From IMG/VR virus record IMGVR_UViG_3300027963_000048, positions 51,615 to 115,614 of that record: a DNA stretch of 64,000 bases, one strand, 5' to 3'. Shown in pieces: positions 29,830-50,167 of this stretch (its first letter is position 1; each line of letters starts with the position of its first letter). The stretch comes from a virus. The notes beneath the pieces are model-generated. The model worked only from the letters and a program-made list of their open reading frames with translations. It had not been told where the DNA came from and ran no database searches. The translations under genes were made by a program, and so were the position numbers.

Positions 29830-29981
29830 TGTGATGCTCCGTTTGTGATGTTGTGACTGGCTAATTGTAGCAGGTTTGATATTGTTTAATAATTATGTGT
29901 GTTGTATTGGAGGGTTATTTTTCCTATGTTCGTGGTCTGTCACATCATGCCGGGAAATTCACCAGTACTTGGAGTGATGAA

Positions 29982-31130
29982 ATGAACTTTGCAGCTGGCA
30001 CTGGCTTTGAGTTGCGACCTTATCAGCAGAGGATTATAAAGAAAGTGACAGACATGTTCAAGGGTGAATATGTCAAGAATGACCAGAAGCAGGTTTATAA
30101 TAGCGTTGTGATTGAGAGTCCTACTGGGTCTGGTAAGACTTGTATGATGCTTCTTACCGCTAGAGAAATGCAGAAGAGTATTCCCGGCTTGTATGTTTGT
30201 TGGTTTGCTATGCGTCGCAATTTGTTGCGGCAGGCAGCTGAGGAGAATACGCGTCGTGGTGTTGGAGTTGACATTCAGTTCTTTTCTATGTTTGGGAAAG
30301 AATTCGAAGATGTTTTGAGAGCTAAGGCTGAGGGTCGTAAGATCCTTGTGGTGTTGGATGAATATCAGCATGATAGTTGTAATACTATGGCTAATATTCA
30401 CAATGTGATACAGCCTGATTTTGTACTTGGTGGTACTGCTACACCTTACCGTACTGATAGCGCTAGTTTGAGCTATCAGGCGATTGTGAAGGATGCTGGG
30501 ATTCATACGTTGATTACTGAGGGTTTTTTGAGTCAGTATGATCATTATTGTATAGAGGATTGGAAGCCTGAGACGGTAGCTCGTCATTACTTGGCTGATC
30601 GTAGTAAGTGGGGCAAGAGTTTATTTTATTTCGTTAACACGAATTTGTGCCAGGAATTCCATGCGATTTTGCAGGCTAACGGTGTTGAGTCTGAGGTTGT
30701 CACTGCTAATAGTGATGATGAGGCGCAGATAGCTCGGTTTGAGTCTGGTGAGATTGATGTTTTGATTAATTGTATGAAGCTTACGGAGGGTTTTGATTGC
30801 CCTGCTCTTAGAACTGTATGGGTGCGTGATAGTGTGAAGGGTCCAACTGTGCAGATGGGTGGTCGGGTGCTTCGGAAGTTTGGTAATTTGCCTGTTAAGC
30901 AGATTGTGCAGAGTGTTGCCACACGTGTGCCATTCACTAGGGTTGCTAAGCCTCGCTATCAGACTTTGTTTAAGGATGGTAAGTGGTCGAGTTTGACTAT
31001 TAATCCTAAGATGGAGCAGATATCGATTATGAGTCGTGTTGCTTGCGCTAGCGCTATTACTGAGATGCCTCAGTTTATTACCAAGAATAAGCGTAAGAAG
31101 TCTCGGATCTTTGGAGCTCCTTTGGATTAA
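29982..31130 (+). CDS. SF2 (DEAD/DEAH-like) helicase
   Basis: LRPYQ, SPTGSGKT, LDEYQH, TATPYR, LTEGFDCP, QMGGRVLR. GGAG RBS before ATG 29982. Confidence 0.9.
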   Translation: MNFAAGTGFELRPYQQRIIKKVTDMFKGEYVKNDQKQVYNSVVIESPTGSGKTCMMLLTAREMQKSIPGLYVCWFAMRRNLLRQAAEENTRRGVGVDIQFFSMFGKEFEDVLRAKAEGRKILVVLDEYQHDSCNTMANIHNVIQPDFVLGGTATPYRTDSASLSYQAIVKDAGIHTLITEGFLSQYDHYCIEDWKPETVARHYLADRSKWGKSLFYFVNTNLCQEFHAILQANGVESEVVTANSDDEAQIARFESGEIDVLINCMKLTEGFDCPALRTVWVRDSVKGPTVQMGGRVLRKFGNLPVKQIVQSVATRVPFTRVAKPRYQTLFKDGKWSSLTINPKMEQISIMSRVACASAITEMPQFITKNKRKKSRIFGAPLD

Positions 31131-31207
31131 GTATTATCCTATAATATCTTTTGTGTTTCGATATTGTCATATAGTATTGTGGTTTTGGTGATTTTTAACA
31201 AGAGGAG

Positions 31208-32338
31208 ATGATGATGATGACGACTTTTAATTACGTGACCACCAATGTTAAGTCTTTGCGAGCTCACGTTGATGAGCAGCGGACGAAAACCGGTCGGTTG
31301 TTACGCAAGACTTGCGACAAGATTGAGATTGATGGTCAGGCTGCCCATCCGACCTCTAGGTTTTGGAATAGCTTGTATAGCATGTACGGGTTCAATGGTG
31401 CGTTTTTCAAGTACTTCAGCCATGATGAAGTGTTCACGCGTCTCCAGGAGCGTGATGATGATAGGGAGATTCGGGTGTGTGTGGAGAGCGATAATGGGGT
31501 TGATAAGTTGCTTGCTTGTACAAATCCCAATTCTGGTCTGATCACTTATGATGAGTTGATGGATTTGACTAGCACCTTGGGTGGTGACAAGGTTCGTTAT
31601 GCCAATGGTGTGGTTGAGTCGTGTCACAAACCTGCGGTTGGTGCTGGTGATGTGTCGATTGGTGGTGATCAGTTTACACCACATGTTACGCTTTCAGCAC
31701 CTATCGATGGTTATGGGTTGCCTAGTTTGTATTTGAGCTTGCTGCGTCAGGTGTGTTCGAATGGGTTGGTTGCTATGGATAAGGCTTTCCAGAGTCGGAT
31801 TTCGGTTGGTAAGAAGGATGGCAATGTTTCTTATAGCATTGCTCGCCATTTGCAAGGTTATGGTAATGATGAGGGTTATTCTGCGATCAGGCAGCGGATT
31901 TCGTCGTCGCAGACTTCTAGAGCGTCGTTGTTTGAGGTGACTGATCTTTATAACGCTATCAGCCGTGTTAAGGAGAATATTTCTAGTGTTGCACCAGAGG
32001 ATACCGCTGGTTCGATGGTGCAGCAGGAATACGGGATGAGCAATCGGTTTAGCGTGTCGAGATCTTTGGTTAATCTGGCTGGTGATGTGTCGAGCTTGTA
32101 TGGTTTAGCGTCCACTAGCATGGTTAATACTAAGAAATTGAAGACGTTGCCAGCTAAGTGTAGTGTGTATGACTTGATCAATTTTGCTACTGAGGTAGCT
32201 ACTCACCATTCTGATACTACTGCTGCTCGGCGTTTGCATGGGTGGGTTGGTAGTTTGATTAGTAACGAGTATGATCTTGAGGGTGCTAAGATGACTTTGG
32301 ATAGCAATGGCTTCAAGGAATTACACCTTAGTGCATAA
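31208..32338 (+). CDS. DUF932-like protein
   Basis: DG....LRQVCSNGLV and C-terminal YDLINFATE..TH motifs. Confidence 0.65.
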   Translation: MMMMTTFNYVTTNVKSLRAHVDEQRTKTGRLLRKTCDKIEIDGQAAHPTSRFWNSLYSMYGFNGAFFKYFSHDEVFTRLQERDDDREIRVCVESDNGVDKLLACTNPNSGLITYDELMDLTSTLGGDKVRYANGVVESCHKPAVGAGDVSIGGDQFTPHVTLSAPIDGYGLPSLYLSLLRQVCSNGLVAMDKAFQSRISVGKKDGNVSYSIARHLQGYGNDEGYSAIRQRISSSQTSRASLFEVTDLYNAISRVKENISSVAPEDTAGSMVQQEYGMSNRFSVSRSLVNLAGDVSSLYGLASTSMVNTKKLKTLPAKCSVYDLINFATEVATHHSDTTAARRLHGWVGSLISNEYDLEGAKMTLDSNGFKELHLSA

Positions 32339-32428
32339 TATTTATTGGTTTAGGTGCGAGGGGGATTGCCCTCTCGCACTTTCTTTGTCACATGTGGTCG
32401 GTGGTTCACGTGTTAGGAGGGGTGTGTT

Positions 32429-33171
32429 ATGGCGTTTACTAAGATTTGGGAAGATTTTAAAGCGTGCAAGGAGCCGTATTTTCGACTCGAATTGCCTAAG
32501 CCGTCGATGGAGTTAACTGCTGCTGCGCCTCCTCGTATTAGGAAGATACATGAGGAAGCACCTAATTTGACGATTGTGGAAATTAAGACTGATTTGCTGG
32601 ATGATGGGCGGTTTGCATGTCTGAAGGCAATGCGCGATTTGGATGATCAGAGTGCTTTTGGATTGCTGTTGACGTGGTGGAGTATGTTCGCTTTGGGCAT
32701 TGGGATGAAGCAGGTTATCCCTATTGATAGGCTCTCTGGAAAGGGGTTGGCAGAGGATTTACATCAATGTGGTTTTGCTAATGTGGTTAAAAGAAAGAAA
32801 TCGGGTGCTGGATTGTACACTTATCATAGTGTACTGTCCAAGGTGGGGAAGCATACTAAAATTATTGGTGTGGATATTGAAGCTGCCGATTGCCCTTGTA
32901 AATTTTCAAGGAGTGCGTAATGCCTAGTTTTAAGTTGACTATTGGTGTTGAGGTGGATGTTGATAATGTGATGGATCCTACTACTAGTTTGAATGTTATT
33001 AACAATAGGATCTATGATAAATGTATTGCTCGGGATGATGTAGAGTTCGATGGTATGGGTTTTACAAATGGGCAGTGCGAATTCGGGTTCACAGTTGAAG
33101 CGGTTGAATTGGCTGATGCTTTGAGTGTGGTTGTTGAATGTATTAGGAATTCTAACATTGGAGGTGTATGA
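32429..33171 (+). CDS. Two hypothetical proteins (32429..32920, 32920..33171)
   Basis: AGGAGG RBS after element 32362, TAATG coupling. Confidence 0.7.
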
Positions 33172-33383
33172 TGGGTAGAGCTAAGGTTGGTGGCGTAGGT
33201 GCACGTGATAATCGTGAATCTATTTTACTGCGGGTTGAGCCGTCTGTGGCTGCTTTGATTCGTGAGGCTGCTAGGCGTGAGGAGCGTACTCTTACTGCTG
33301 TAATGACGCGTGCTTTGCGATCTTATTTGAAGACCGAGCATGGTCCTGCTGCTGTCGATGAATATTGTAATTCTGCAGGGTGA
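33168..33383 (+). CDS. Ribbon-helix-helix DNA-binding protein
   Basis: ILLRV.P.....IREAARREERTLTAVMTRALRSYL pattern. Confidence 0.7.
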   Translation: MMGRAKVGGVGARDNRESILLRVEPSVAALIREAARREERTLTAVMTRALRSYLKTEHGPAAVDEYCNSAG

Positions 33384-33474
33384 TAGGGGATTTCTTGCTC
33401 ATCTGATTTCTGTCACAATTGGTTGGTGAGGGAGAACGGTTTTTCCTCACCAAATGCGAAAGCGGGAGGTTGCG

Positions 33475-34116
33475 ATGAGTTTCTTGAATAATCTAAAGTC
33501 CAAGTCGGTTAACAAGGCTACTAAGACTGGTGCAAAGAAGGGCACCAGTTGGATGCTAACTGAGGCAGCTCATATTGACGCGGTCAACGAGATCGTGAAG
33601 CTCGACCGTGAGGTTGATGCTATCAATGCCAAGATTAATGTTCGGAAGAACATTCTTAAGGGTGTTGCTCAGGAAAAATGGCTTTCTGATTATGTCCGTG
33701 AATCTGGATCTCCAGAATCTCCGATGAAGCTGTTGACTCCTGAGGGAGAGAGCTTGACCTATGTGGTGCAGGATCGCAGCGGCCAGGTGAAGGTCTCTGA
33801 TGATCTTCGTGAGCAGCTCGTAGTTGAGATTGGGTCGGATGCGGTTGATCGTCTCTTGTACGAGGAGACCACGTTCAGCTTCAATCGTGTGGCGTTGATG
33901 AACCCACAGATTGAGAAGGCTGTTAGCAAGGCCCTTGAGGCCTTGGTTGAGCAGGTGGCCTCTATCGATCCTGAGATTTCGTTGTTGGATGTCGAGCAGA
34001 AGGTGGCTTATAAGAAGCTTGATAATTTGACTGAGATTTGTGGTCATGATAGGGGTGCTATCTCCCGATTCGTTGAATTAATCGGCAGTGCTTTGGTCCG
34101 ATATTTGAAGGTTTAA
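33475..34116 (+). CDS. Hypothetical protein
   Basis: GGAGG RBS after element 33387. Confidence 0.75.
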   Translation: MSFLNNLKSKSVNKATKTGAKKGTSWMLTEAAHIDAVNEIVKLDREVDAINAKINVRKNILKGVAQEKWLSDYVRESGSPESPMKLLTPEGESLTYVVQDRSGQVKVSDDLREQLVVEIGSDAVDRLLYEETTFSFNRVALMNPQIEKAVSKALEALVEQVASIDPEISLLDVEQKVAYKKLDNLTEICGHDRGAISRFVELIGSALVRYLKV

Positions 34117-34207
34117 GGTCGTCCCTTGATGGGGTGGGGGGATTTCTCTCCCACCCCTTTATTGTCACATCGAATTGTCAGTTTGATAATAATAAGGAGG
34201 CGCAACG

Positions 34208-36124
34208 ATGGAAGCTGCTGTTTGGGCTAATCAGTTGGATTGTAACAGCATTATCAAGCACCTTGATGTTGGTGCGTTGTTTAAATTTCCAAATGATGAT
34301 ATGGTGATGTTATATCACGGGCGCGGGTGGTATTCAAATCCGACCCATCCCAGGAATCCTTTGATTCGGTTTAAGACTGGGATGAATACTGGAGTTATTA
34401 GAATTAATTAATTGGAGGGTGTGCGATGGCTGTTAATGCGGTGAAGGTTACTGATCGTGTTTCTGGAATTGCTGGCATGAATGCCAAGTTGAAAGAGGCG
34501 TTGGCTTCCGTGTGGGTTTTGGAAGGGCACGATGGCTTTTGGTCTTATCAAGTTGGCGCCAAGCCTGATACTACTCCACCAAGTGGTGCTGTGTTGGGGA
34601 ATGTGGGTGGTGGTATGGTTGCCTTATTTGTTGAGAATCAGGTATTTAATCATTTGGTTGAGATTGGTAGTGGTGCGTAGTAGGGATTTCTCTCCTCTCT
34701 CAACCCTGTCACAATTTTGTGTGGTGGTAATAACAAGGAGTGAGAAATGACAACTTACATGATAGTTCGAAGATATCAGAATGCCTGTAGGGGGGGGGTG
34801 GTAGAGCGTGGTTTGAGCCTTGAGGAGGCTCAGGCTCACTGCCGTAACCCAGAAACGTCCTCTAAAACTGCCACATCCTCATGGGCTGTGACATTAACTG
34901 AGAAACGTGGCCCGCGGTTCGACGGGTACGAGGACGAGGGTTCGTTTCTATAAGGAGTATGGTGATGTGGCAAGATTGGTCAGCGATCCTCAATAGTGGG
35001 GATCGCACTGCGATTATCAGTTGGCTTGCCTGGAATGATCCAAGTGGGGTTTATCTGGATAGTGATTGCGAGCTTGAAGGCTTGCCTTGTCTAGATATTG
35101 ATGCTGCTAGGGATTATATGCGTCGGGCATTGGAGAATGGATAGTGGGGGGGGGATTTTCATCCTCTTCTGGTTGTGCCACAATATCGTGTCCTTTTTTG
35201 GAGGTGAGCGATGATAAAGAAGCAATCGTTGTCGGTGTGGCGTAAGCAGTTTGCTGCTGAATACTTGCGTCGCGTCGGTATTACCATTGAGGATGGTGGT
35301 GCTGATGGGGTTGTTGAAAATTATTTTTCTGATAGCTTCACGCCAGCGGAGGCGGTGGAGCGTGAGATAGAGAAGTATGATTTGGCTGATATGTCTAACA
35401 TGTTTGGGTGGATGTAAACACTTAGAAAGGGGTTAATATGTCATCTGATACTGCTGGTAAGTGTGTTGAAACAATGTCGAATGTTTCGCAAGATGATTTT
35501 GAGGGTTTGTTTGAATGTGAGGATGTGTTTCGTAGTGATATAGATAAAGCGATACAGTGTGTTTATTATTTTGATGGAGTTGGTGGTGAGGTGGCTCATT
35601 ATTTTCCGTCGTTGAAGAGTGGCACGATTTTTAAAGTGCCACGGATTTGGCATGAGTCTTTTAAACCCAATCTTACTTTCGTTAGGAAATGGTTTGAAGG
35701 CGAGGAGATATAAATATATTCTCCCATGTCGTTTGGGCTGTCACAATTTGATGTAACCAAAGGAGATTTTGCGATGAAAGTGATGAATCACGCTGAATAC
35801 CAAAAGAACCTCCAGAAGAAAAGCTGGAGTGCGTTGTGGTACACTGCAAAGGACGCAATGGAGGCTGCGCAGGCCTACCCTGAGGGAGAGAACGCGTCGT
35901 ATTACCTCGATGAGGTCAATTATTGCCTGGATGAGATTGCCAGGCGTAACAGGCTTGAATTGAAGGTGAAGGTGAAAGATCAAGACACCATTCACACGAT
36001 CTACTCCGACTTGTCGAAGGTGGGTTTTGTGATGAGGGAGATTTACCCTACTGGTCACTTGGTCAGTTGCAGAGCTTTCGATAAGGCTGCTGCTACTGAG
36101 TTGTTGTGTGGTGGGCTCAAATAG
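34208..36124 (+). CDS. Small early-type proteins: 34208..34411, 34426..34680, 34747..34953, 34959..35144, 35211..35417, 35438..35713, 35774..36124
   Basis: Each has an RBS, and most directly follow a GGGATTT-N17-TGYCACA element. Confidence 0.7.
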
Positions 36125-36540
36125 TGGGGAATCTCTCGCACCCCTTTCTTTAGTGCTTTGTGTGCAAATGGTACGATTACTGCGGATTTGTAGATTAGGG
36201 TAAAGCGTCGCTTTGATTTGTTGCGACAGTTGCGTGAGCTTGATGCGTAACGGCACCCAGTTGCCGAGCCACCTTGTACTTGTGGGGTGGAGCTGGAGGT
36301 ATAGCCCCTGAGCCTTACGTTGTTCGGTGCAATCACCTGTGCCTTATATCGGGGGATGGTGTTGGCGCGAACAGACTCTCCGTCTGTTACAAGCCCTAGG
36401 TTAGGTGCGTACTGCGTTGGTATTAAACACTAAACCTAGATTCAAGTAATTGAGAGATTCTTGGAGCTTTGATGGGGTGCCACAATTGAGAGGTCAGCAA
36501 TTGGAGCTGTGTGGCACCCCATCATTTTTGGAGATGAACA

Positions 36541-36825
36541 ATGGATACTGATGAATCTTACTCGAAGTTGAAAACTCGTGCAGAGCGATTGTTGGTATTA
36601 GTGCGTCAAAACGCGCCCTTTGAAATTATTTTCAATGAGATTATGCTGTTGCATAATATGATGCCTGAGTTTGAGGAAGCTTACATTAAATGGGTTGTAA
36701 GCCAGGCGAAACGTACAATTGAGAAGAATAGGAATACACGCGGGTTATGTTCAGAATGCCCGGCACAGTTGGGGGATGGTGAGGAGATCTGGTGTGAAGC
36801 GTGTGGCAAGCAATATGATGTGTAA
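36541..36825 (+). CDS. Hypothetical protein with C-terminal CxxC...CxxC zinc ribbon
   Basis: GGAG RBS, CSEC...CEAC. Confidence 0.65.
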   Translation: MDTDESYSKLKTRAERLLVLVRQNAPFEIIFNEIMLLHNMMPEFEEAYIKWVVSQAKRTIEKNRNTRGLCSECPAQLGDGEEIWCEACGKQYDV

Positions 36826-36831
36826 TTGATG

Positions 36832-36862
36832 GGGAGGCAGCCGAGAGGCTGCCTCCCTTTTT
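36832..36862 (+). terminator. Intrinsic terminator
   Basis: GGGAGGCAGCC-GAGA-GGCTGCCTCCC followed by a T-run. Confidence 0.85.
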
Positions 36863-36936: not shown

Positions 36937-37817
36937 CTACTGGATGAGGGAATTAAATATATGCATTCCATGGCCGCGGACAATAAAACTAGCGTAATCG
37001 GTTGCAATGTCGAAGTTTTCGAAAATATGTTTGGTCAATTCGCCCTTCATAATTAATGGGATGTGTTTTTCTCTTTTTAAAAGAGCAATTTGGTCTGGTC
37101 CTGTTCTTGCTTCGTTTCGCCTATCGAAAATGCCGACGAGGCCATCGCATAGGGTGACAAAATCTGGTTCATCCATCACAACCGTAGTGATATGTCGGCC
37201 ATTTACATTGAATTCTTTTTTGAATGGTGCGCTCATATTGCTCCTGTGGTTAAGTCGTGTCCGTTTCATTTTGGCATCAGCCGGGTGGTAGAGTAATTAC
37301 TCCACCACCGTTTTTGTTAAGCGAAGAGTGGAAAGCCTGGGACTTTTCCAGAGCTGTTGGTTACGAGGCGGCCCAGAGCTGTTGGTTGGCGCTGTGAGAT
37401 ATGCGGTCGGTTACATTCTCCGCCACTACGATCTCTAGGATCTTATTAGCGACGCGTGTTAGGGTGTCTCGGTCTGTGTGCCAACTGTAGCTAGTGCACG
37501 CTGATCCGTCTTGAATTGGCTCGTCTTTGTAGTAGATGGTATAGCGGACGAGTGGTTGGTCATTGTCTGCTTCGCCATAGTCTCCATTTAATCCTTCTCC
37601 GTCATATGAGAGGATAACTTGATGGTCGCCGGTGCTACTTACTATGTCATCGAAATGCATGTTAGCTCCTTTGGGGTAGGTTGTTGTGGGCGTCTTGTGG
37701 CACCTTAGGTGCTACTGCGAATTTCTCTGGCCACTTGGGTGCCTCCGGGCAATCTTTGGCGTGAAATTGAACGTCAAAGAAGAAACTATACTCGTATTTG
37801 CAATGCGGGCAGCTCAT
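36937..37817 (-). CDS. Three small proteins (36937..37236, 37361..37660, 37662..37817)
   Basis: GGAG RBSs, co-oriented. Confidence 0.6.
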
Positions 37818-37948
37818 TTGATCTCCTTGTGTTGGATCACCTCGATTGTTTGTGACAGCGCAGTTGATGTGGGATAATGGGTTTTCCCCTGTCGTTATGT
37901 CTGTCACAATTTGATGCAGTTTGATTCCCAGTAACCGCGGAGGCTAAG

Positions 37949-40514
37949 ATGAGATATCGTGAGTTCATCAAACCTTGGATCGTGGGCCCGATGGCAGAGT
38001 GGGAAATCATGGAGATCGGTCGGGCATGCCGCACGCCAAATGGTAAGGGCATCAACCTTACGTGTCTCACCGACGGAGGTGAGAGGGTGTTGAGTGTGCG
38101 AAAAACCGGCGGCGAAAAATACAACAACGTTGCCATCACAGAATGGTGGGACAAATACCTTGGCCTGATGCCATCGCGTCTGGACTGCCCTAAGACCCCA
38201 AAGGGAAGCGTGGTAGTGAAGGTGGTCCCGATAGAATAGTGGACAGGCATGTTGGTGGGGGGATTTCTCTCCCCGCCTTTGACTGTCACAGGAGGGAGTG
38301 ACGGGACGAATGACACACGGAGAAACGGAATGCTAGACCAAATTGCGGAAATTGCGAATATGGTACAAGCTCAACCAATCATCAAGTTTGTCGAGACAAT
38401 CGACGACGAGTGGCACCGGTGGGTTTTGTCTGGCGCCAGAGTTGGGTCCGCTGCCCCTTGGGCTCTCACGTTCGATACTGAAATAGATGGTCGAGATCTT
38501 GTTGTGGAGAGTGCTGTTGGGCTTTCTGAACCAGAGAGTCAAGAATTGTTGCTCCAGATCCATCAGCTTGTCGAATTCCCAGAAGTGCCAGAGTAGGGGG
38601 ATTTTTCTCCCCTCGCCTTTGGCTGCCACAGAATTATGTAACCGACCTCAAACCAAGGAGACGACGATGGAATTCAAAAAAGGCATCCTTTGGGGCGGGA
38701 AATTTGGACGCCCACCCACGGTCGAGCTCCCCACGCCGGGAGCCAATCAGGGGAAGATCATTGATTACATTCAAGAGGAACACAGGATTTTTTTCGAGGT
38801 CGGCTATTTTGCCGACGGGCTCTGGTGTTCCTTCGAAAGGGCTTTCGACCATGAGGAAGCATTAGAGAAACAAGCTAGGCTGGCATATAGTCACCAGCGT
38901 GACTGGGCAATCGTACAGGTTGACATCAAGATCACACGAAAGTTTGTGTAGGGGGGGATTTCTCCCTATTTGGCAGACTGTCACAATTTACTGGTGGTGA
39001 AATTGGTGTCAGGGAGTGCGACAATGACTTACAGTATTACGCGTTTTTTTGAAAACGGCAGCCGGGAATCGATCGCTACGGGTTTGAGCCTAGAGGAGGC
39101 GCAGACTCACTGCAAGGATCCGCAGACAAGTTCCAGGACTGCGTCGGAGTCCTGGGCTGTGGCTCTGACTGCTGAGCGCGGAAGGTGGTTTGATGGGTAC
39201 GAGTCAGAGGATAATTTTATCTAGGGGTGATTATCCTATTCATGGGACCCTGCCACAATTTGTTGTGGTGGGGCTTGTGGGTCATAGAAAGGGATATTAG
39301 CTATGGCTGTGTGGCGTTATCGTGACTGTGTCAGTACGTTTAACGTTGGCGGTCAAGACCGCCAAGTTCGTATCCACTGGATCGAACATCGTCGTAATGT
39401 CGATAATGTCGAGCTCGACTATTATGAGTTCGTGGACGGGTTAGACCCAGTAGAACTGGATCTAGACTTGGTGGAGTTCGAAGCGGTTCAAAATTCGACC
39501 CATTATTTGAGGTGGAATCATGATTGCGATTTGGAAGAATTGCCTAGGTTAAATTTAGAAGAAGGAGATGGTAATGTACGGTGAACCCTCATCTTATTAT
39601 GATTTCTTCACACCTACGTTTAGCGAGCTAATTCATGATTACGCTCGTGGCGTAGGTGACCAACATCCTGATCGCTGTTGGCTCACCACCCCTTATGACA
39701 CCTTTGTACGTAACCCATTTTATGCCGGACCGGAACAGCCTTGCCCTGAACTTTAATCGAACGCAAACGGGTGGGGGGGATTTCTTCCCCCACCTTCTAC
39801 TGCCACAAAATAATGTAACCGACCAATAACCAAGGAGGCCAAAATGATCGAGCTAGAATTTGACATGTCTGTGCAGTTAACTGACACCGAGAAGCTGTCG
39901 GCCATGCTCAGGTCGATTGCTGACCAAATCGACAGCGGCGCGTGTGGCAGCAAGATCATTAAGGATGGCTTGGCCGGCCAGTGGAGACTCTACGACCCAT
40001 ACGAGCAATAGTGGAGGGGGGATTTCTTCATCTGGCTTCTATTGTCATAATTTGGTGTAACCAAGGTAGTCGGGCTGTCACAGCTCGATGGGGACGGAAA
40101 GCTAACGTTAGGAGGTCTGGGATGTCTTACTTGGAAGCTGCGTTTGATGCGGTGATCAAGGACAGCAAGCCGTCGGAGAAGTGGTATGTGGTCCTCATGG
40201 AGGATAGCTCCTATTATGGAGGCCCGGAAGAAGGGGGCTGGTGGGGACATGATACTGACGTGCTGAAGTACGCGGTATTTAATAACGAGGAAGCGGCTTT
40301 GCAAGCCAAGGAGCGCGTGAAGGAGTTGGCTGCTGAGTTGGAGGCCCAAGCTCGCACTGAGTATGGTGAGGGGTGTTTACGGCAGTTGGAGTGGTTGGAT
40401 GCTCGCGGCTTGGATGCGGATTTCTTTCCTGAGGATGATGGTCCGAGTAGGTATTGGGTTTATTGTGGCCAGGAGATTCCTCAGCCCTCGGTTGGTCCGA
40501 GGCATTATGAGTAA
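37949..40514 (+). CDS. Small early-type proteins: 37949..38239, 38330..38596, 38667..38951, 39024..39224, 39303..39584, 39568..39756, 39844..40011, 40122..40514
   Basis: One gene per element, starts set from RBS. 39844..40011 (55 aa) is absent from the ORF track but is paralogous to 47598..47816. Confidence 0.72.
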
Positions 40515-40525
40515 ATAGGTTATTG

Positions 40526-40608
40526 CTCACCGTGGTGTAATGGCAGCCACAACGGACTTAAAATCCGTTGCTCGAAAGGGCGTATGGGTTCGAGTCCCAT
40601 CGGTGAGA
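40526..40608 (+). tRNA. tRNA-Leu(TAA)
   Basis: Acceptor CTCACCG/CGGTGAG, anticodon arm ACGGA-CTTAAAA-TCCGT, long variable arm, ATGGG-TTCGAGT-CCCAT, discriminator A. No encoded CCA. Confidence 0.92.
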
Positions 40609-40617
40609 TTTGAAAGG

Positions 40618-41061: not shown

Positions 41062-41640
41062 TTAGTTGGTGCCCCATGGGTTGGAAGGCAACAAGTGCCT
41101 ATACGCTTTGCACAAGTATTCTTCAAGGTCTTCATCCTCCTGGAGGGCTTTCATGGCGTCAGAAGTGTTGCCATGCACGCGTTCACTTATTACACCATTC
41201 GGGTAAGATACTTGCACGATGCGGAAACTGAGACCTTCCCATTCCACTGGCTTTCTGAAGATTCTGACTTTATCACTGGCGTAATCGAACATCAGTCTTC
41301 TCCTTGTGGCTGGGGGCGGCTTGCCGGTCGTCAGCTCGCTCCCCCCGGCCCCGCTTTATTATGACAGCCCCCGGCGCCGGGGGAAATCCCCCCCCGCAGC
41401 GCGGCGGAGGGGCATCACCTGTTATTGCTCGGCATTGGCACAGAATTGTGACAACTTCCAGGACGCTTCACTGCCGAGGACGTCGGCTAGTGCTCTGTGA
41501 ATTTCCGTCGTGGGTCCTCCGGCGGAGACCCACGAGTGGTATTCGTTGAGGTGTTTCAATGTTTGGCCATATTCGCTGATTGCGTACGCTTCGTACGCTT
41601 CTAGCAGGCAAGCTTCAGGGTCCAACTCTTCAGGGTCCAT
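41062..41640 (-). CDS. Two small proteins (41062..41292, 41422..41640)
   Basis: Each is downstream of a minus-strand element (41360, 41677) and has an AGGAG RBS. Confidence 0.7.
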
Positions 41641-41784
41641 CTTAAACCTCCTTATTCTAGTGCCGTCACATCATTCTGTGGCAGTGCGTGCGAGATAGGA
41701 GAATCCCTATATGGGGGGGATTTCCTCCTGGCGTGACGGGTGTCACAGATGGGTGTGACCGAAGTAACCCTAGGAGACCCAACG

Positions 41785-42777
41785 ATGGAATTCTTGAAAT
41801 CAGTCGAATTCGAGTTTGAAGGCAGCCTCTTCATTGCCACTCTGACTGACTCGGACGCGATGTCGGTGGCGGAGATCGATGTGTTTGGGCGAGACGATGA
41901 CGCAAGAAATCGTCTCGAAGATGACGATTTCTATGACAGGATCTATCAGCATGTGAACAATCGTTTCGTTTAATGTTGCGTGTGGTGGAGGGGGGGATTT
42001 TTCCCCTCCACCATTGCTGTCACAGTAAATCGTTAATGCAAAGGGGACTGCGATGGAAAGAAAAAGTGGCGTACCGGTGTTGCACTTCTGCGATGAGGAC
42101 CTGACACTCATCGGAATCGATCCAGAGCGCGTTGATGACGAAGCGTTCGAGCGCATCCTAGACGGGTTACGCGAATATTACAACACATCCTTCACGGATG
42201 TGTTGCAGGACATTGTGGCAGGTGTGTTGGACGGAGATTAGCCAACTGGCGGCAGTGGGGATTCCTCCCTCACCTGCCGACTGCCATAAGTTGGTATAAG
42301 GAGATGATGATGAAAAACGTCAGCGCACCGAAGCGTGTAGAACGCAAAATCACGATTGTTATCGACCAGACTCGCGTGAGCCGTGGCCACTTGGCAACGA
42401 GTGGGGCTGGGACTCACCAAGATCGTCGCCAAAGGCGGCGAAAGACTCGGTCGGCGGCACTTATGGCTTGCATGGAATAGGGGGATTTCTCACCTGCCTT
42501 TTGTCTGTCACAATTGGTTATGAGAAGCCAAGCCGAGTGACGCTTGGCTAGTGGGTTACTTGTCAGACCAATCATTCACATGGAGCCGAACATGACCAAG
42601 CACCAGACAGCGCTATACGAAGCAACTACCACACTGATGGCTAAGCTCTCCATAATCTCAAACTATTTGGGTGTCGCCCTTATGTATAACGACGACGGTA
42701 AACTCAAAAAGGCGATCGAACAACTCGATGAGGCCCAGAATCTCGCCATCACCATCCACAACAGTACCTCCCGATAA
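41785..42777 (+). CDS. Small proteins: 41785..41973, 42053..42241, 42304..42480, 42592..42777
   Basis: One per element. 42304..42480 (58 aa, basic, GAGTHQDRRQRRRK) was read by hand. Confidence 0.68.
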
Positions 42778-42955
42778 AGGCATAATCTCCCCCACGGCAT
42801 CTAAAGCTTGCGTAAATGCTTCCGCAAAAACGTCGACACAAATGTAGTTGCGCACTAACCTTGGAAACGGTGCGCGAGTTCAGGTGGGGGGATTTCTCCC
42901 CCACCATTTGGCTGCCACAGTTTAACGTAACCGACCCAAAACCAAGGAGACGAAA

Positions 42956-43357
42956 ATGAGCATCAGCGATTACAACATGATGACAGTCGGCAAAGCTAAT
43001 TTCACACTTGCTAATGACAAACACCGATGGACATATCAGATCAACCAAAGCAAAGACGGAAGATGCTACTTCGTCAGTGTCCTGTCCGGCGCGGACAATA
43101 ACGCTGACTATGCGTACCTTGGCATCTTCAAGCCTGAGAACGGGTCAGTCAGTCTCACAAAGGCATCGCGGTTCACGCCAGAATCAATGCCCTTCAGGGC
43201 TGTAGCCTGGCTAGTGCAAACACTCAAAAAAGGCGAGCCGCTAACTCATAACTTCGAGCTAAAATGGGCCGACCAATGCCAACGATGTGGCAGGACACTT
43301 ACTGTCCCATCATCGATAGATAGTAGAATTGGGCCAGAATGCGCTAAGAAGGTGTAA
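42956..43357 (+). CDS. DUF6011-like zinc-ribbon protein
   Basis: CQRCGRTLTVPSSI..RIGPEC C-terminus, VL.G.DN..DY.YLG. Confidence 0.75.
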   Translation: MSISDYNMMTVGKANFTLANDKHRWTYQINQSKDGRCYFVSVLSGADNNADYAYLGIFKPENGSVSLTKASRFTPESMPFRAVAWLVQTLKKGEPLTHNFELKWADQCQRCGRTLTVPSSIDSRIGPECAKKV

Positions 43358-43359
43358 CC

Positions 43360-44004
43360 GTGAGGCTACCCGATGATGTTAAAGATGTGCATCTCCTTGG
43401 AGACATCCATGGAGATTATGGTAGGCATGATCGCGTTGCTAAAAAGCACCATTATACCATTCAATTGGGTGACTTTGGTTTCAAGTATGATTCCTTAAGA
43501 AAACACGACCCGAGTTATCACAAAGTGCTTGGTGGTAATCATGATAATTATGATCTGATTGGTAATATGCCTCACTACTTGGGTGACTTTGGTACTTTTG
43601 AATTAAGCTCACCGGAGTTCACTTATAGTGTTATTAAAGTGTTTTATATTAGGGGTGCAGATAGCATTGATAAACAGTTGCGTACGATTGGTGTAGATTG
43701 GTGGCAAGATGAGCAATTGACTATGGCGAGGATGAATGAGGCTTTGGATTTGTATGGTAGCTACAGGCCGGATGTTTTGTTAAGTCATTCTCCGCCGTCG
43801 TTTGCGATTGAGTGGTTTTGTGTTCCCAGGTTACCTTTTGCGTTGACTGAGTATTGCTTGGATGTTATGCATGAGGTTTATGCTCCGAAGTTGCATATTT
43901 TTGGGCATATGCATAAGACGAAGGTTAAGAAGTTTGGATCTACTAAGTTTGTTTGTGTTGATATTAATCAGACTATCAGTTTGGTAAAGTCTTTTCGTGG
44001 GTAG
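43360..44004 (+). CDS. Calcineurin-like metallophosphoesterase
   Basis: GDIHG, QLGDFG, GNHD, LSH.PP, FGHMH. Confidence 0.9.
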   Translation: MRLPDDVKDVHLLGDIHGDYGRHDRVAKKHHYTIQLGDFGFKYDSLRKHDPSYHKVLGGNHDNYDLIGNMPHYLGDFGTFELSSPEFTYSVIKVFYIRGADSIDKQLRTIGVDWWQDEQLTMARMNEALDLYGSYRPDVLLSHSPPSFAIEWFCVPRLPFALTEYCLDVMHEVYAPKLHIFGHMHKTKVKKFGSTKFVCVDINQTISLVKSFRG

Positions 44005-44049
44005 GGTTGGGTGTCACAGTTGTTTGTGGTCAAAGTGTGGAGGTGTTGA

Positions 44050-44226
44050 ATGGAGTGTTTGGGGTGCGGTAAGACGATTCCGGCTGGTCGGTTGGAGATT
44101 TTCCCTCACACGCGGTTTTGTGTGGGGTGTGTTGATAAGCACCCGCAGGGGGTTAGTTATGATTATTCGCATGTGGTGGCGCAGTCGTCGTCATCTGGGC
44201 GTAATGGGTTTGCTAAGTCGGATTAG
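44050..44226 (+). CDS. TraR/DksA C4-type zinc-finger protein
   Basis: Hand translation: MECLGCGKTIPAGRLEIFPHTRFCVGCVDKH..., matching C..CG..IP..RL...P....C..C. GGAGG RBS. Confidence 0.8.
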   Translation: MECLGCGKTIPAGRLEIFPHTRFCVGCVDKHPQGVSYDYSHVVAQSSSSGRNGFAKSD

Positions 44227-44589: not shown

Positions 44590-44693
44590 GTTGTCCTCCG
44601 GTATGGTATATTTGTTTCCTCCCTGGAACATGGGGGGTCCCTTATCGCCCGATATCAGGCGATAACCTTACCAGCCGTTCACAACACAAACCC

Positions 44694-47600
44694 CTACCGC
44701 AAAACCAACACCCTCACTCGCTCCTCGTCCTCTTCTCGGTCGTCGTCGTCCTCATCGTTCTCAATCAAAGCAATACCGCTTTTGCTGTAGCCGCTCGTCT
44801 TAATGTTCGACGTTTGGATACCCAAAGCGTCCCTGATCGGCAAAAGCTGCTGCGTGTGGCTGATATCGCCGTAATCACAGCACAAAAGGACAGGCTGATC
44901 ATCGTCAACGTCCTCAATCAGCCGTTTCAGTTCACCAGCAGTCATCGTGGCGTGCAAAACTTGCTTGATCTCGTAGTTATTAGAAGCTTTCATCGCTATC
45001 TCCTCTTCTTTCGCCAGGTGGGGTGTCCGCCCCTCCCTCCCCTCTGTGGCAGGGGGAGGGGCTCCCGTTAATTGTTAGCGCCTGATATCAAGTGCTCCGC
45101 CGTTTGATGCTGTCTCTCATAGCGACGCAATCCTCGATGCAAAAGCCGGTGCCAAGGATATCACCGCTATCCGCCAGAAGCCAGCGATCCGGGTGTCTTT
45201 CGCTGCTTTCATGCGTCCCTGGTGCAAAAGCAACCATCCGGTTCGGGTTGGTGGTCCATGCTTTTCTCGCTTGTTCCATGCTCATCGGTTTCATGTCTTC
45301 TCTCCTTTTCGTCACCAGGAGAGGTGTCCGCCCCTCCCTCCCCTCTGTGGCAGCCCGCCGGGGCGCGGAAAATCCCCACCGCCGCAGCAGCTCGCAGCGC
45401 CGGGAGAAAAGCCCCCGCTGGGTGGGGTTTCTCCGGCCCTTACCGACTGATATCAAGGACAGGGGAGAAAACCCCCCACCAGAACCGACTTGTTACTCGT
45501 CTGCACTTCCAGACCTGGACAGGTTCGGATTTTACCACCGGGTTTAGATTGCATCGTTATCCGTGTATTTAAAAGTTTTCATAGTTACCTCTTCCACTCC
45601 CTACTTACAGTTACCTTAGCAATACCATATTGAGCTTCGCTCATTTTCTTTAAGGCATCATGTACAAATTGAGTTCGTTTACTAGGGCAAATGGCAAACT
45701 CCAAACGAATACGGTCGTCATCCCTTTCATCAAACTCAAAGATTAAACAATCCTTTAGATCTAGCACTAGATGCTGCTCCATCGTGACCTCCTAATCTTT
45801 ATTCCCGACCACTCCCTCCTGTGGCACCAAAGAGGCAGGGGAGAAACCCCCCTGCCTCCAGCCAACCCGTTACTCTTCGTCGTCTTCGTCCTCGTACGCG
45901 TGGTGAGGGTCGTCTTCCTCACTTCCGTCGTCCCCTTCCCACAAGACAGTGTAGCCGACGCTCTCGTCAGCGGCTGCGGCTACCAAAAGCTTAAGCTGTG
46001 CTACTGCGTCTTCAGCCTCTTTGAGCTCAAGACGCAACCGCCCAAGAGCGTCGCTCTTGGTTGGGCAGTGAACAAAGGCGTCCTTGTCCTCGCCTTCACC
46101 GTAGTTCTCAAAGTCGTTACAAACGCTTCGAGGGTAACCGGTACCGTAAAAAAGCGTCCCCTTGTGAAGAGAAAAGACCTCCTCCTGCGGGAACTCACCA
46201 CCGTCGTGGCCCCCTGGGTGTTCAACCAGGTCACAGAAAACCACTTCACCGACTTTACTTCCCTTTAACACTTAGGTCTCCTTTGTTAGTGCCACTCGTC
46301 CCCGTCACTCCCTCCTGTGACAGCACACAAGAGGGAGAAAAACCCCTACTCCGTAACTTCTGGAAACTCCACCAGCGTGTGGATCTCCAGCAGGAGCTCT
46401 TGGCTCTCGTCCTCGGAGAGCCCCACAGCACTCTCCACTGCTAGATCTCGTCCCTCGATCTCAGTGTCGAACGTGAGCGTCCAAAACGCGTTGGAGCCGA
46501 CCCGAAAGCCAGACAGCTCCCACCGATACCACTCGTCGTCGATCGTCTCGACGAACTTGATAGTCGGCTTAGTCTGTGCTAAGGGCCTGATATCTGCGAA
46601 AAATGCCGCCATTTCATTCTCTTGTGTGTCGTTCGCGTCCCCATCTCACTGTGACAGCCACGGGAGCCGGGAGAAATCCCCCCCAGCCCCAGAATCAAAC
46701 CGCTATTCCTCAATCCTCAGCTCGCACACCGGCTAATCTTCTGGTATGTGAATCTGCAATCTTGCCTTAGCAGCCAACGCTTTCAATAACGCGTCTTTGC
46801 GTTTCTGCCAACAATCCTTGTGATCAGCTAAGCAGACCATACGGTCCGCTATCGGCGTGTCTCTCAGACAAGGCGGTAAATTTTCCACAAGACCTCCCGT
46901 AATGAATGCCTTTCGATCCCGTTTTCTGTAACAGTTTACTTGATGGTAAGATACCCCTATACCCCCTGTTTCCTCGCTGGAACATGGGGGGTATATATAG
47001 AGGCCTGAAAGCGCCGTGGAGCCACGCCTCCTACTCTTCGAGATAATCGTTCTCAAACAAGTAATCAAGAGCCCACATGATCTGCTTAGCCGTGTAGCCA
47101 AGAGAACCTAGCTTCTCTCCCATCTCGAAATAGAACCAACCGTCACCACCTCTTCGATGAAGGATGGGCCTGGCAGTTCTCAGCGCTATTGTCAGCAATA
47201 CCCGTTTTTCCGCAGTGCACATTACCATCGCTGTCTCCTGTGTTGGGTGTCATTCCGTCTCAGTTAGTCTGTGACAGCCAGAAAGGGTGGGGGGGAATCC
47301 CCCCACCATGGCCGCCATGTACTACCCGACTAGCACTTTCGTCGTGCCATTACCGATGATAGGCTATTCGCAAGGCCCACTAGAATTAGTGTTTTTAATG
47401 GTTCAATCCAAGGAGTGTTTGATATGAAAATTTCTTGCAACGTTAACGCCTTGCAGAGATCGATCATCTGTTGCCAGTCTTGTAGGTCGGCCATTCGTCG
47501 TCTCCTTGTGGGCCCCGGGCTCCGCCCTGCTGTGGCAGCCCGCCGGGCGGGAGAAAAGCCCCCCCGCCGCAACAGCCCCCGGCGCCGAGAGAAATCCCTA

Positions 47601-49505
47601 TTCGGCAGGTGCTGTGATGCCAATTGCTGCCAACTCCTCCTCGTAGGGGTCGTAACAGCACCAGTGGCCTGATAGGCCATCCCGCGAGACCTGCTTACCA
47701 CAGTTCCCGTTCTCGATTTCATCTGCGATTTTCCGCAGTGCCGCCACCAAGACGGTCGAGTCGGTGTACTGCAAAGACACTTCGAGTTTCAATTCTTCGA
47801 GCTTGTGCCATCCCATGGTCGACTCCTTTTGTTGCTGGTCTCTCGTTCCCAATCTATTGTGGCAGCCAAAAAGCAGGGAAGAAATCCCCCCCGGAGGCTG
47901 GAGCTACGAAAATTATCATACATGCAACAACTGCGGTTCCTCAAAATCCCACTGCCAACCACTCCCAACCCACCGACACCAACAGCCCTGCGGAATACCC
48001 CAAAACTGAAACGGATCCTTGTCATACCCACGACCCGCGGCCTTCGCACGACATTCACTCAAAGAATCACCCGTAAACGCCATATCATCCACAGTCATCA
48101 CGTAGTACTTGAACATCACACCCTCCATCGTTGATGCCACCACACAAAACTGTGACAGTAAAAACAAGGAGGAAAAATCCCCCACAAAATCACGCAATAC
48201 CACCATTATCAGCAATAATACGCTCCACCAAATCAACAGGAACCCAACCGTAAACCGTACGAGTCGGCTCCTCCGCATCCTCCGCAAAAGGCATCAGCTC
48301 ATCAACTACAAGATTAGGAAAACCAACCTCCACTTCACTAAAAGGACCAACATTATCCCGCGGAGCACAATAATGCGCATGGCTAGCCTGCACAGAAAAA
48401 CGCAACCCACTCTTGCAAACAACCTCACGCGCCAAAACCCCAGCACGATTACTACAAAGATAATCATTCAACATAGCACAATCCTCCTCGTATAGTGTTG
48501 TTTCCTAGTTGGAACACAGGGGGGGTGTCGGCAGGGCGGGGAGACGATCCGCCCCACCGACACAAGGGATCATATCCCAAACTCAGCACACACCTCATCC
48601 ACCACACCATTCGTGGCAGCCAAAACTTCCTCCAAATTCACCGTATAATCCGAAATCACATCCCAGCCATCATTCCCATACACAAGATTCACATAACCAA
48701 CACGAACACCGTCCTTATAGAAAAAGATCGACTCCTCATCCACCGTCCTACAAGCCTCCCAAAGCTCAGTCGCATCGGTGGACTTGTGAACGGTGACTTC
48801 CTCACCATTGAAAACCGACAGCGCAAACCCCTGCTTGATCGCATCCTCCATCATGAAGGTTACTATCCGACGCTCCATCTGCATGCGATTCTGAAGCTGC
48901 TTGCAAGTGATTTCCTCGTACGCCATGTCAAGCCTCCGGAAAAGGTGTCCTTCATTCCCAACTCACTGTGACAGTCAAAAGGCGGGAGGAGAAACCCCCC
49001 GCTCGGTGCCACCTTACTTGGTGGGCTTACCATTACGTCTGGCAATCTCGTCCAGACAATAATTAACCTCGTCGAGGTAATAGGACGCGTTCTCTCCCTC
49101 AGGGTAGGCCTGCGCAGCCTCCATCGCGTCCTTTGCGTTGAACCACAACGCACTGTTACTTTTCTTCTGGAGGTTCTTTTGGTATTCAGCGTGATTCATC
49201 GCTTTCATCGCTTTCATCGCAAAATCTCCTGAAAAGGTGTCCTTCATTCCCAACTCACTGTGACAGTCAAAAGGCGGGAGGAGAAACCCCCCGCGCCGAT
49301 GAGCCGGTTGTTACTTGGTAGTGGGGGCGCCGTAGAACCGGGTCATTCCACCACGGGCCTTGGCGCCCTGCGAGCCACGCAACACGCCGCGTTTTGCCTG
49401 CGACTTGGTGCACGCACGATCCATTGCGAAGATCTTCCCGAAAGTGCGGATCGCACTGCCTTCACGCATGGCTTCAAGATCGATTGCGTCTAGGTGACGT
49501 TCCAT
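44694..49505 (-). CDS. Small early-type proteins: 44694..44993, 45088..45294, 45585..45782, 45870..46271, 46346..46612, 47031..47228, 47330..47494, 47598..47816, 47916..48116, 48190..48474, 48570..48926, 49014..49217, 49311..49505
   Basis: Each has a GGAG-type RBS. All but 48190..48474 directly follow a minus-strand element. Confidence 0.7.
48939..49294. repeat. 64-bp exact direct repeat of element plus leader (48939..49002 = 49231..49294)
   Basis: GAAAAGGTGTCCTTCATTCCCAACTCACTGTGACAGTCAAAAGGCGGGAGGAGAAACCCCCCGC occurs twice. Confidence 0.92.
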
Positions 49506-50167
49506 TGTCTCTCTCCATTTCGGGCTGGACCGGATGTCGGTCGCTCGTTCCCATATATCTGTGGCACCCAGAGGGGATCGGGAGAATATGGGGGAGGGGG
49601 GGATATACTAAGTCCGGGAGGGGGATAGTATATATATATTGCAATATATCCCCAATATGCTCTCTCTATTTCGATATATTTTTCCGTGCGCGGGCGACTA
49701 TATATCCCCCTTCGGGGATAGCGTAGTGGGTTTCGAATTGGTAGGGTTCTGCAGTGGGTAGGGTTCTGCAGTGGGTAGGTTGTCGAAAATGGTGCTTGTG
49801 CTACTTATTGTAGTCACGATTTTGGGGGGTGTGATGGGTTGTATTAATTCTGATGCTGTGATTGGTGTGAAGCTGCCGAGGCCTGGTGGTGGCGGTTCGG
49901 AATGTGTGGAGCGTTCGAAAGTTGAGAATGTGTGTAAGGGTGGGAATGGTGTGGATGGGTTCGGGGAGGTTTTGGGGGCTGTATCGGGTTTGGCGTTGTT
50001 AGGAGCGTTTGATGGTGTTGATTTTTCCCCGCCGTAGGATGATTTAATTTTTTGGGCCGGGGGACCCGTTCTGGGTTTTAAAAATATTTTCCGTGCGCGG
50101 GCGATTATATTTTACGATTGGGGGGGGTGTGTATGCTGCGGTTTATTGAGGATGATGTTCTTGGCTG

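Follow-up and report, generated by a model that had tools for sequence, protein, structure and literature searches.

Putative PeSL-type promoter modules ahead of the small genes of a hyperplastic region in a freshwater T4-like jumbo phage

The gene array and its repeated modules

The DNA analysed here is a window of 64,000 nucleotides (nt) forming the last 64 kb of a 115.6-kb virus record of IMG/VR (IMGVR_UViG_3300027963_000048), and its central part carries an array of small genes headed by a repeated bipartite element, GGGATTT-N17-TGYCAYA. Judged by its proteins, the phage is a distant T4-like jumbo phage of freshwater: it encodes a T4-type portal (Portal_T4/gp20, 1.3e-73), a Gp23 capsid protein (2.9e-80) and a T4-type terminase (Terminase_6N), and its DNA was found in freshwater lake metagenomes from about 16 studies. 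Proteins with 72-86% identity to the capsid protein are encoded on many IMG/VR contigs, among them complete genomes of 350-410 kb, and the capsid relatives are T4-like jumbo phages; the best GenBank match, at 39% identity, belongs to an uncultured 595-kb phage, and a paper on aquatic 'moraphages' gave no link to the present clade (PMC12619734). About 50 small genes occupy the 17-kb array stretch, with a module ahead of most of them (Table 1). Their products, examined as 47 cassette open reading frames (ORFs), fall mostly into PHROGs of unknown function, the annotated exceptions being a DksA/TraR zinc finger, a metallophosphoesterase, a ribbon-helix-helix protein and two domains of unknown function (DUFs), and an Rfam search of the array returned tRNA only.

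The original prediction of about 30 fixed-spacing elements at 29914-49590 proved real, with 17 exact copies in the window, where dinucleotide shuffles give an expectation of 0.01. If as many as two mismatches are allowed, the count rises to 32 matches versus 1.9 expected, 30 of them lying within 29.9-49.6 kb, and 37-39 elements are obtained when the search is anchored on TGYCAYA and read in context. No exact copy was found outside the array in a scan of the whole 115.6-kb contig, including the first 51 kb of the record, and an overlapping 67.6-kb contig of the same phage holds one match with a single mismatch that is probably due to chance. As had been proposed, the spacing is mostly 17 nt, with 18-19 nt in a few copies. 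Plus-strand elements extend over 32.4-44.0 kb and minus-strand elements over 45.0-49.6 kb, with two small inverted islands within the plus arm (37.7-37.9 and 41.4-41.7 kb); the two arms meet at about 44.24 kb, which confirms the convergent organisation described earlier.

Motif positions follow gene starts. On a gene map curated by hand, an element faces the gene in 36 of about 42 upstream gaps of at least 45 nt and is missing from all nine gaps that do not exceed 25 nt, and the layout of one module per small gene holds. The elements also point, as first noted, toward a ribosome-binding site and a start codon, which lies at a median of 45 nt from the T of TGY, with a mode of 43-48 nt. Since the upstream ORF ends no more than 35 nt from TGY in 13 of 36 elements, its stop codon abuts or overlaps the G run, and both TAG stops cited in the original prediction (38591 and 42475) are correct examples. 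Our reading of the locus, to which we give a probability of about 0.8, is that the window between 30 and 49.6 kb is a hyperplastic region in which nearly every small gene or mini-operon of two to three genes has its own module of the PeSL (promoter-early stem-loop) type, a class of terminator/promoter composites known from T4-type phages.

Anatomy of the element and modules in relatives

When the 45 nt upstream of TGYCAYA are folded, a G-rich 5' arm ending in GGG pairs with a C-rich 3' arm inside the 'spacer', around a loop of 4-7 nt (approximately GATTTCT) and frequently ahead of a short T tract. GGGATTT, initially described as the first box, is thus a real pattern, but its GGG is the end of the hairpin 5' arm, and it is ATT(T)CTCC whose conservation does not depend on the hairpin. 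Folding energies of -16 kcal/mol or better are reached in about 17 of the 29 aligned elements, about ten hairpins being weak, and energies of -12 kcal/mol or better in 55% of elements versus 24% of shuffles. In an arm-swap test, used in place of fixed-register covariation, own arms gave -16.0 kcal/mol versus -13.6 kcal/mol for arms swapped among elements (0 of 20,000 permutations, p<5e-5). Such hairpins resemble weak terminators or attenuators more than they do textbook terminators. A canonical bidirectional terminator located within the array (36831-36858) is a perfect GC-rich hairpin with a T run, instead of which the element hairpins have short T tracts.

The box ATT(T)CTCC is kept independently of the hairpin. 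Copies with weak hairpins retain GGGATTTCT, and three hairpin-less copies carry ATTCTCC at an unchanged distance from TGY (35739, 49566 and, in the strain variants L247/L252, the copy before gene 42956), of which 49566 heads the minus arm with nothing upstream needing termination. The commonest -35 hexamer, TTTCTC, lies at -20 to -15 from the T of TGY, within the hairpin loop and 3' arm; the C run of the hairpin occupies the spacer, and the -10 hexamer CACART, most commonly CACAAT or CACAGT, lies at +3 to +8 after an extended -10 TGY. The C at -12 (37 of 37 elements) and the A at -11 are invariant, the CACA core is near-invariant, and a T is present at -7 in about half of the elements. Further downstream, 33 of 37 copies keep a conserved TG 13-14 nt past the T of TGY; an A-rich leader and a strong Shine-Dalgarno (SD) sequence come next. 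This TG falls at -2/-1 to +1 in the homology-based register described below, and transcription most likely starts there, 6-7 nt past the -10 hexamer, a position that would agree with the start predicted earlier at 6-8 nt past TGYCAYA. A TGTRAC inverted partner follows TGTCACA after 5-6 nt in about eight elements and, in a divergent pair of elements (41668-41756), the -35 boxes form adjacent inverted repeats.

The register of the -35 and -10 boxes follows from homologous TTGACA-N17-TACAAT modules in G001, the closest long relative (capsid 84% identical). Neither exact nor one-mismatch copies of the motif were found in ten capsid relatives, and an IMG/VR scan with the 14-base pattern gave only chance singletons among the matches listed; analogous modules in relatives emerged from k-mers enriched ahead of SD-ATG sites. 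Such modules precede about 40 small genes within the first 32 kb of G001, and in them the G run is followed by TTGACA, TTTACA or TTGCNN exactly where the present phage has TTTCTC, then by a C run, a T run, TGY-TACAR, a similar TGGG start region and an ATG at a median of 47 nt. This arrangement, TTGACA-N14-TGY-TACAR, amounts to TTGACA-N17-TACAAT with an extended -10 TG. The G002 module has TTTACG, TTGACG or TTAACG (also given as TTKACG), then N14 and YGC-CACA, and that of G004 has a repeated TGCTATAA with an undefined -35 box. Hairpins over the -35 box and spacer are enriched in G001 as in the present phage, but not in G002. Because the G001 and G002 modules are homologous, the motif is to be read as a diverged sigma-70-type extended -10 promoter. 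The sigma-type bipartite geometry of the original prediction holds in this respect, with its 17-nt spacing and a register matched by G001, whereas its 'undescribed promoter class' is not supported in view of TTGACA-N14-TGY-TACAR in G001 and TTKACG-N14-YGC-CACA in G002.

Two further features of the relatives were observed. Many G001 modules (L205-L206, first 32 kb) have, immediately before the G run, a further small and conserved hairpin, TTTCC-N5-GGAAA, which is absent from the elements of the window. In G002, a GTGTC tandem array of more than 20 repeats (L190, G002:232000-251999) is syntenic with the array start.

Other assignments of the boxes were rejected. If TGYCACA were a -35 box, a -10 box 17 nt downstream would place the start in or past the SD. 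An extracytoplasmic function (ECF) sigma, as originally suggested, is not supported: the -35 consensus GGGATTTCTCC is without the AAC of GGAAC-type boxes and there is no CGTC-type -10, GTC being restricted to the TGT variant, with GCC in 15 of 37 elements. As to sigma-54 (GG -24/GC -12, TGGCAC-N5-TTGC), the elements read TGYCAC, in which Y replaces the second G, and the downstream TG is one position off and without C. A generic sigma-70 promoter scan does not detect the elements.

Cassette exchange between strains and neighbouring features

It is well supported that modules act as sites of cassette gain, loss and promoter swap between strains, as seen in variants from other lake metagenomes. 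An extended-pattern scan of Joint Genome Institute (JGI) metagenomes yielded five contigs of strain variants. Among them, L247 and L252 are without gene 45088-45294 and one element copy, the junction lying inside a 30-nt core common to elements 45051 and 45352; before gene 42956, they keep the leader from the SD region on, and a hairpin-less ATTCTCC-type element replaces the hairpin type. L254 puts side by side cassettes that here lie on opposite arms, and in L251 the same elements flank genes that are mostly novel. In strain X7, from another study, 1,140 bp are missing between elements 47864 and 48973 and a hybrid element stands at the joint. Other joints of X7 lead backward along the window and may stem from circles, from duplications or from a different order of genes. 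The array itself contains four paralog pairs. Three of them span both arms (38330-38596/46346-46612, 39844-40011/47598-47816 and the 93% paralogs 35774-36124/49014-49217, which are identical from the SD on with different elements upstream) and one lies on the same arm (34747-34953/39024-39224).

PeSL cassettes of the T4-type phages RB49/phi1, T4/PST and KVP40/nt-1 are terminator/promoter composites with polyG/polyC stems, found in hyperplastic regions, which mediate indels, replacements and mini-circles (PMC2839356, PMC4122927). The analogy with them drawn in the original prediction stands, given a T4-like phage, polyG/polyC hairpins and modules at strain cassette exchanges. Both kinds of module combine an intergenic polyG/polyC stem-loop with a bipartite promoter of 17-nt spacing and an SD-ATG, are dense among small ORFans in a hyperplastic region of a T4-type phage, include degraded half copies (here at 45.40-45.48 kb) and are found at indels, replacements and duplications between close strains. 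They differ in their boxes, TTTCTC/CACART here versus near-consensus TTGACA/TATAAT in PeSLs, and in their layout, since the -35 box lies here inside the hairpin loop and 3' arm whereas the PeSL stem-loop stands just upstream of the promoter. In addition, the hairpin-class elements are without an AT-rich upstream region, and phage and host clades differ, the relatives here being 350-410 kb freshwater phages that encode their own sigmas. The promoter and terminator roles of the present elements are predicted from sequence, and mini-circles are a feature of the published PeSLs. As far as their sequence tells, the elements are not of a new kind, but PeSL-type modules with variant promoter boxes; what is new is a set of non-consensus boxes that seem to have drifted in concert, a -35 box placed inside the hairpin and a new clade encoding its own sigmas.

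In the mechanism that we propose, the G-run/C-run hairpin, which often begins at the stop codon of the preceding gene, would terminate incoming transcription or attenuate it. Initiation would use the -35-like box ATT(T)CTCC in the hairpin loop and 3' arm (hexamer TTTCTC), a 17-nt spacer ending in the extended -10 TGY and the -10 hexamer CACART; it would take place at the conserved TG 13-14 nt past the T of TGY and be followed by a leader of about 30 nt, a strong SD and an ATG at about +45. Each cassette would thereby be transcriptionally self-contained, and the repeated modules would offer homology patches through which recombination could add, delete, duplicate, invert and re-promote cassettes.

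Some neighbouring features were recorded along the way. Just beyond the array, a RuBisCO large-chain-like protein of 393 amino acids (aa; window 50610-51791, plus strand; PF00016 3e-34) is an unusual phage cargo, whose best solved relatives are the 'ribulose bisphosphate carboxylase' chain 8dht, RuBisCO-like 2,3-diketo-5-methylthiopentyl-1-phosphate (DK-MTP-1-P) enolases and archaeal-type enzymes (E 1e-35 to 1e-39). A second repeated motif of about 25 nt, TTTTCCGTGCGCGGGCGAYTATAT, occurs at 49680-49715 and 50085-50120 (plus strand) ahead of the rightward genes 49771 and 50168, and the divergent region 49570-49770 has many GGGGGATATA-type repeats and AT-alternating runs; these may represent another promoter class or an origin-like region. 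Farther right, on the minus strand, a tRNA-Met(CAT) (55325-55397) adjoins a DNA polymerase III alpha gene, a 569-aa fragment-like ORF with NTPase and finger domains only (53597-55306), and a 675-aa protein has three Laminin_G_3 (concanavalin-like) domains (55475-57502). Upstream of the window, contig positions 5877-10268 (L009) encode a 1,463-aa class II ribonucleotide reductase interrupted by an intein that carries a LAGLIDADG homing endonuclease. A 604-aa ORF (contig 46135-47949, minus strand; L011:8135-9949), conserved in G001-G003 at 30-37% identity, gave no Pfam match even at E 10, no PDB sequence match and no fold match (from a poor model, with a predicted local distance difference test score, pLDDT, of 48).

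Table 1. Elements and associated features, in window coordinates. 'T' followed by a number is the position of the T of TGY; dG is the hairpin energy in kcal/mol.
Position	Strand	Feature	Gene or context
10905-11474	+	189-aa protein, sigma region 4 domain and orphan N-terminal domain	candidate -35 box reader
29906-29953	+	weak element, 2 mismatches in -35 box, T 29938	helicase gene, ATG 29982, 44 nt from T
31133-31180	+	TGTCATA box without -35 box, doubtful member	before 31208-32338
32354-32401	+	element, strong hairpin, dG -23.2	heads 3-gene unit 32429-33383
33379-33426	+	element, weak hairpin, exact boxes	gene 33475-34116
34131-34178	+	element, strong hairpin, dG -21.9, T tract	gene 34208-34411
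34675-34722	+	element, weak hairpin	gene 34747-34953
35144-35191	+	element	gene 35211-35417; strain X7 joint 35158
35707-35754	+	hairpin-less variant, ATTCTCC at -35 position	gene 35774-36124
36446-36493	+	degenerate element	gene 36541-36825
36831-36858		canonical 12-bp hairpin terminator, not part of an element	between convergent genes
37687-37734	-	TGCCACA box, poor -35, doubtful	inside 51-aa ORF, 42 nt to ATG of 37361-37660
37842-37889	-	degenerate element, divergent pair	gene 37662-37817
37870-37917	+	degenerate element, divergent pair	gene 37949-38239
38252-38299	+	element, strong hairpin, dG -19.0	gene 38330-38596
38592-38639	+	element, 19-nt spacing, hairpin begins at previous gene's TAG	gene 38667-38951
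38947-38994	+	element	gene 39024-39224
39219-39266	+	degenerate element	genes 39303-39756
39769-39816	+	element, strong hairpin, dG -19.8	gene 39844-40011
40011-40091	+	tandem: full element (T 40043) and second TGTCACA box (40076)	gene 40122-40514
40015-40073		strain breakpoints at tandem element	before gene 40122-40514
40526-40608	+	tRNA-Leu(TAA) within array	overlaps 153-aa ORF 40540-41001, probably spurious given this overlap
41351-41398	-	element, GC-rich hairpins	gene 41062-41292, absent from strains L247/L252
41668-41756		divergent element pair, T 41683 (-) and 41741 (+)	genes 41422-41640 and 41785-41973
41986-42033	+	element, strongest plus-arm hairpin, dG -25.2	gene 42053-42241
42250-42297	+	element, 1 mismatch	gene 42304-42480
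42474-42521	+	element, weak hairpin, begins at previous gene's TAG	gene 42592-42777
42881-42928	+	element, dG -18.6	genes 42956-44004
43980-44027	+	TGTCACA box without -35 box	DksA/TraR zinc-finger gene 44050-44226
45036-45083	-	TGCCACA box, 30-nt core in common with element 45352	gene 44694-44993
45337-45384	-	element	gene 45088-45294
45400-45480	-	two half elements: hairpin with loop box, without TGYCACA	in 290-nt gap
45811-45858	-	element, hairpin dG -25.6	gene 45585-45782
46307-46354	-	element	gene 45870-46271
46641-46688	-	element, dG -21.3	gene 46346-46612
47261-47308	-	element, 18-nt spacing, dG -20.8	gene 47031-47228
47522-47569	-	element, dG -21.2	gene 47330-47494
47849-47896	-	element	gene 47598-47816; left end of X7 1,140-bp indel
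48142-48189	-	element	gene 47916-48128
48958-49005	-	element, 31-nt core same as 49265	gene 48570-48926; right end of X7 indel
49250-49297	-	element	gene 49014-49217
49551-49598	-	hairpin-less element, first of minus arm, ATTCTCC at -35 position	gene 49311-49505

The polymerase that may read the elements

A search of the phage for sigma genes, suggested at the outset, revealed a 313-aa sigma-70-family protein (contig 304-1245, outside the window) and the 189-aa region 4 protein listed in Table 1. The 313-aa sigma passes the TIGR02937 cut-off and has a diverged -10-reading region 2.3/2.4, the replaced segment of which corresponds to the one that reads -12/-13 in E. coli sigma-70. Its only ortholog in IMG/VR is an identical copy on the overlapping contig, besides which there are two homologs at 57-59%. 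In the 189-aa protein, the C-terminal domain has the sigma region 4 fold (Pfam 34.7 bits; Z 9.0 and root-mean-square deviation 1.8 A versus SigD region 4), its recognition helix reading K-N-R-V-R-Q instead of R-E-R-x-R-Q. Among eight aligned sigma-family proteins from five clade phages, all but the 189-aa protein have an R/K-E-R-x-R-Q helix, with K at the first position in the 336-aa sigma of G002. In the N-terminal domain of this 189-aa protein, a sigma region 2 fold could not be clearly recognised; two homologs of the protein, 75% identical, were found among 1.8 billion representatives, and no relatives in IMG/VR. An 83.8-kb ENA/Logan contig carries a 75%-identical homolog of it together with an 80%-identical homolog of the 604-aa ORF. 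No PF00940 RNA polymerase was matched in the contig or in two complete relatives, in a search run without a positive control. No integrase or recombinase family, the latter suggested at the outset as a search target, was found among the 47 cassette proteins. When 185,579 prokaryotic genomes were scanned, the extended motif turned up as five singletons, never more than once per genome, and no candidate host emerged. Elsewhere on the contig, 14 copies of TGNTATAAT-type boxes were found, some before genes, versus about 3.5 expected by our own estimate; gp55-type TATAAATA boxes show no enrichment before cassette genes.

Several observations weigh against the PeSL-type reading or parts of it. Alignment ends between strains fall inside modules in 11 of 38 cases, a modest enrichment given that modules make up 15% of the region, and several of these ends are contig ends or common to two contigs. 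Stem covariation in a fixed register was no better than in slid controls, because G runs pair with C or T runs in any register. A generic terminator scan set at 5 T in 8 accepts only about six of the element hairpins; T tracts are 3-4 nt long in most elements. The sole RNA run (X20) consists of four low-depth contigs, one of which (38580-38752) crosses an element, reflecting either read-through or contaminating DNA. The boxes are far from TTGACA/TATAAT and may be read poorly by unaided host sigma-70, and the 313-aa sigma retains a canonical -35 recognition helix, with no obvious fit to TTTCTC. A phage-encoded or phage-modified specificity for the motif is plausible from these sequences, and a holoenzyme made of host core RNA polymerase and a phage-encoded or phage-modified sigma is favoured, only slightly, over unaided host sigma-70.

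It is quite possible, though somewhat short of even odds, that the array promoters need a phage factor, either the 313-aa sigma or the 189-aa protein, the latter in the role of an ECF-like sigma or of a MotA/AsiA-like -35 appropriator, and form a delayed-early or middle class. The C at -12 and the CACA core would in that case reflect specific conservation rather than decay, and the host sigma probably reads canonical -10 boxes since TGNTATAAT-type boxes exist elsewhere on the contig. A phage factor is also suggested by the replaced -12-reading positions of the 313-aa sigma, by the altered helix of the 189-aa region 4 fold with its two homologs, which is lineage-specific as is the -35 box, and by the absence of any cellular genome (0 of 185,579) with the motif more than once. 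PmSLs (promoter-middle stem-loops) of Vibrio phage nt-1 and the T4 MotA/AsiA middle promoters have, ahead of a -10-like box, a phage-specific box at about -30 to -35 replacing the -35 hexamer (PMC4122927, PMC2988021), a likeness which suggests that a phage factor may read the upstream box here; however, this box is unrelated to the TGCTT Mot box, no MotA/AsiA homolog was identified and the -10 is non-canonical. Likewise, SPO1 gp28/gp34 and T4 gp55 are phage sigma-family genes accompanied by a repeated non-host-like consensus before one gene block, but the geometry here is near that of housekeeping promoters, and the co-occurrence of factor and motif concerns a single lineage. A phage factor is further questioned by the canonical -35 helix of the 313-aa sigma, the N-terminal domain of the 189-aa protein and the ability of extended -10 promoters to work without a good -35. 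T4-type PeSL promoters are host-sigma-70 early promoters (PMC2839356), and G002 combines a CACA -10 with a canonical -35 and several different sigmas, leaving no clean correlation between sigma and motif. That both boxes (-35 ATT(T)CTCC and -12 C) were rewritten in concert with the lineage-specific 313-aa and 189-aa proteins, which would put the cassette library under a private code, is a more tentative idea that we consider rather unlikely.

Alternatively, and at odds distinctly below even, the elements could be ordinary early PeSLs read by the host housekeeping sigma, with a host preference or a drift of the boxes offset by the extended -10 TG. Their TTGACA-N17-TATAAT-like geometry, the TG at -15/-14, the A at -11 and the T present in about half of the copies at -7 are in line with this, as are the gradation from TATAA to TACAR and CACAR among relatives and the sigma-70 dependence known for PeSL promoters elsewhere (PMC2839356, PMC4122927). 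Extended -10 sigma-70 promoters similarly have a TG just upstream of the -10 hexamer, an invariant A at -11 and a start 6-7 nt past the hexamer, but the hexamer begins here with C in all copies and T at -7 is found in about 50%. The T at -12 and the TTG of the -35 box are recognised by residues conserved in housekeeping sigmas. Against a reading by the host enzyme, -12 is C in every copy, the -35 box retains only TT and the phage has canonical TGNTATAAT boxes at other places.

Very improbably, the elements are no promoters at all but RNA processing sites, operators of a dimeric regulator (TGTCACA + TGTRAC) or attC-like recombinase targets in read-through transcripts, as an RNA contig crossing an element, the TGTRAC partner of some elements and the recombination junctions marked by elements might suggest; yet the homologous G001 modules are textbook TTGACA-N17-TACAAT, the minus arm begins with an element and no promoter upstream, elements stand back to back between divergent genes (41668-41756), most copies have no inverted partner, no integrase or recombinase family is represented among the cassette proteins, and the elements lie 5' of the gene at a fixed distance to the ATG and have no core motif, unlike integron attC, a 3' site of imperfect inverted repeats with a GTTRRRY core and an adjacent integrase. 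The N4-type hairpin promoters of a virion RNA polymerase go with a single-subunit RNA polymerase gene and have a stem of 5-7 bp and a 3-nt loop on the template strand; the loops of the present elements are of the sizes given above, and hairpin-less copies occur.

PeSL cassettes, with sigma-70 boxes close to consensus, have been described only from T4-type phages infecting enterobacteria and vibrios. Here, in a widespread clade of T4-like freshwater phages of 350-410 kb, a gene library of 17 kb is organised by the same design, and natural strain variants capture cassette shuffling in progress. Among the phages of this clade, the promoter consensus varies while the architecture is constant, and divergent sigmas are present in each of them. 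The clade thereby offers a testable system for the joint drift of promoter codes and sigma specificity and for the transcriptional isolation of mobile accessory genes. If the array does depend on a code of its own, the codes of the sister phages (TACAR; CACA with a canonical -35; TATAA) would constitute a natural series of sigma-promoter co-evolution. Besides, genes, their starts and the borders of cassettes can be called in this phage group by a simple rule based on the motif.

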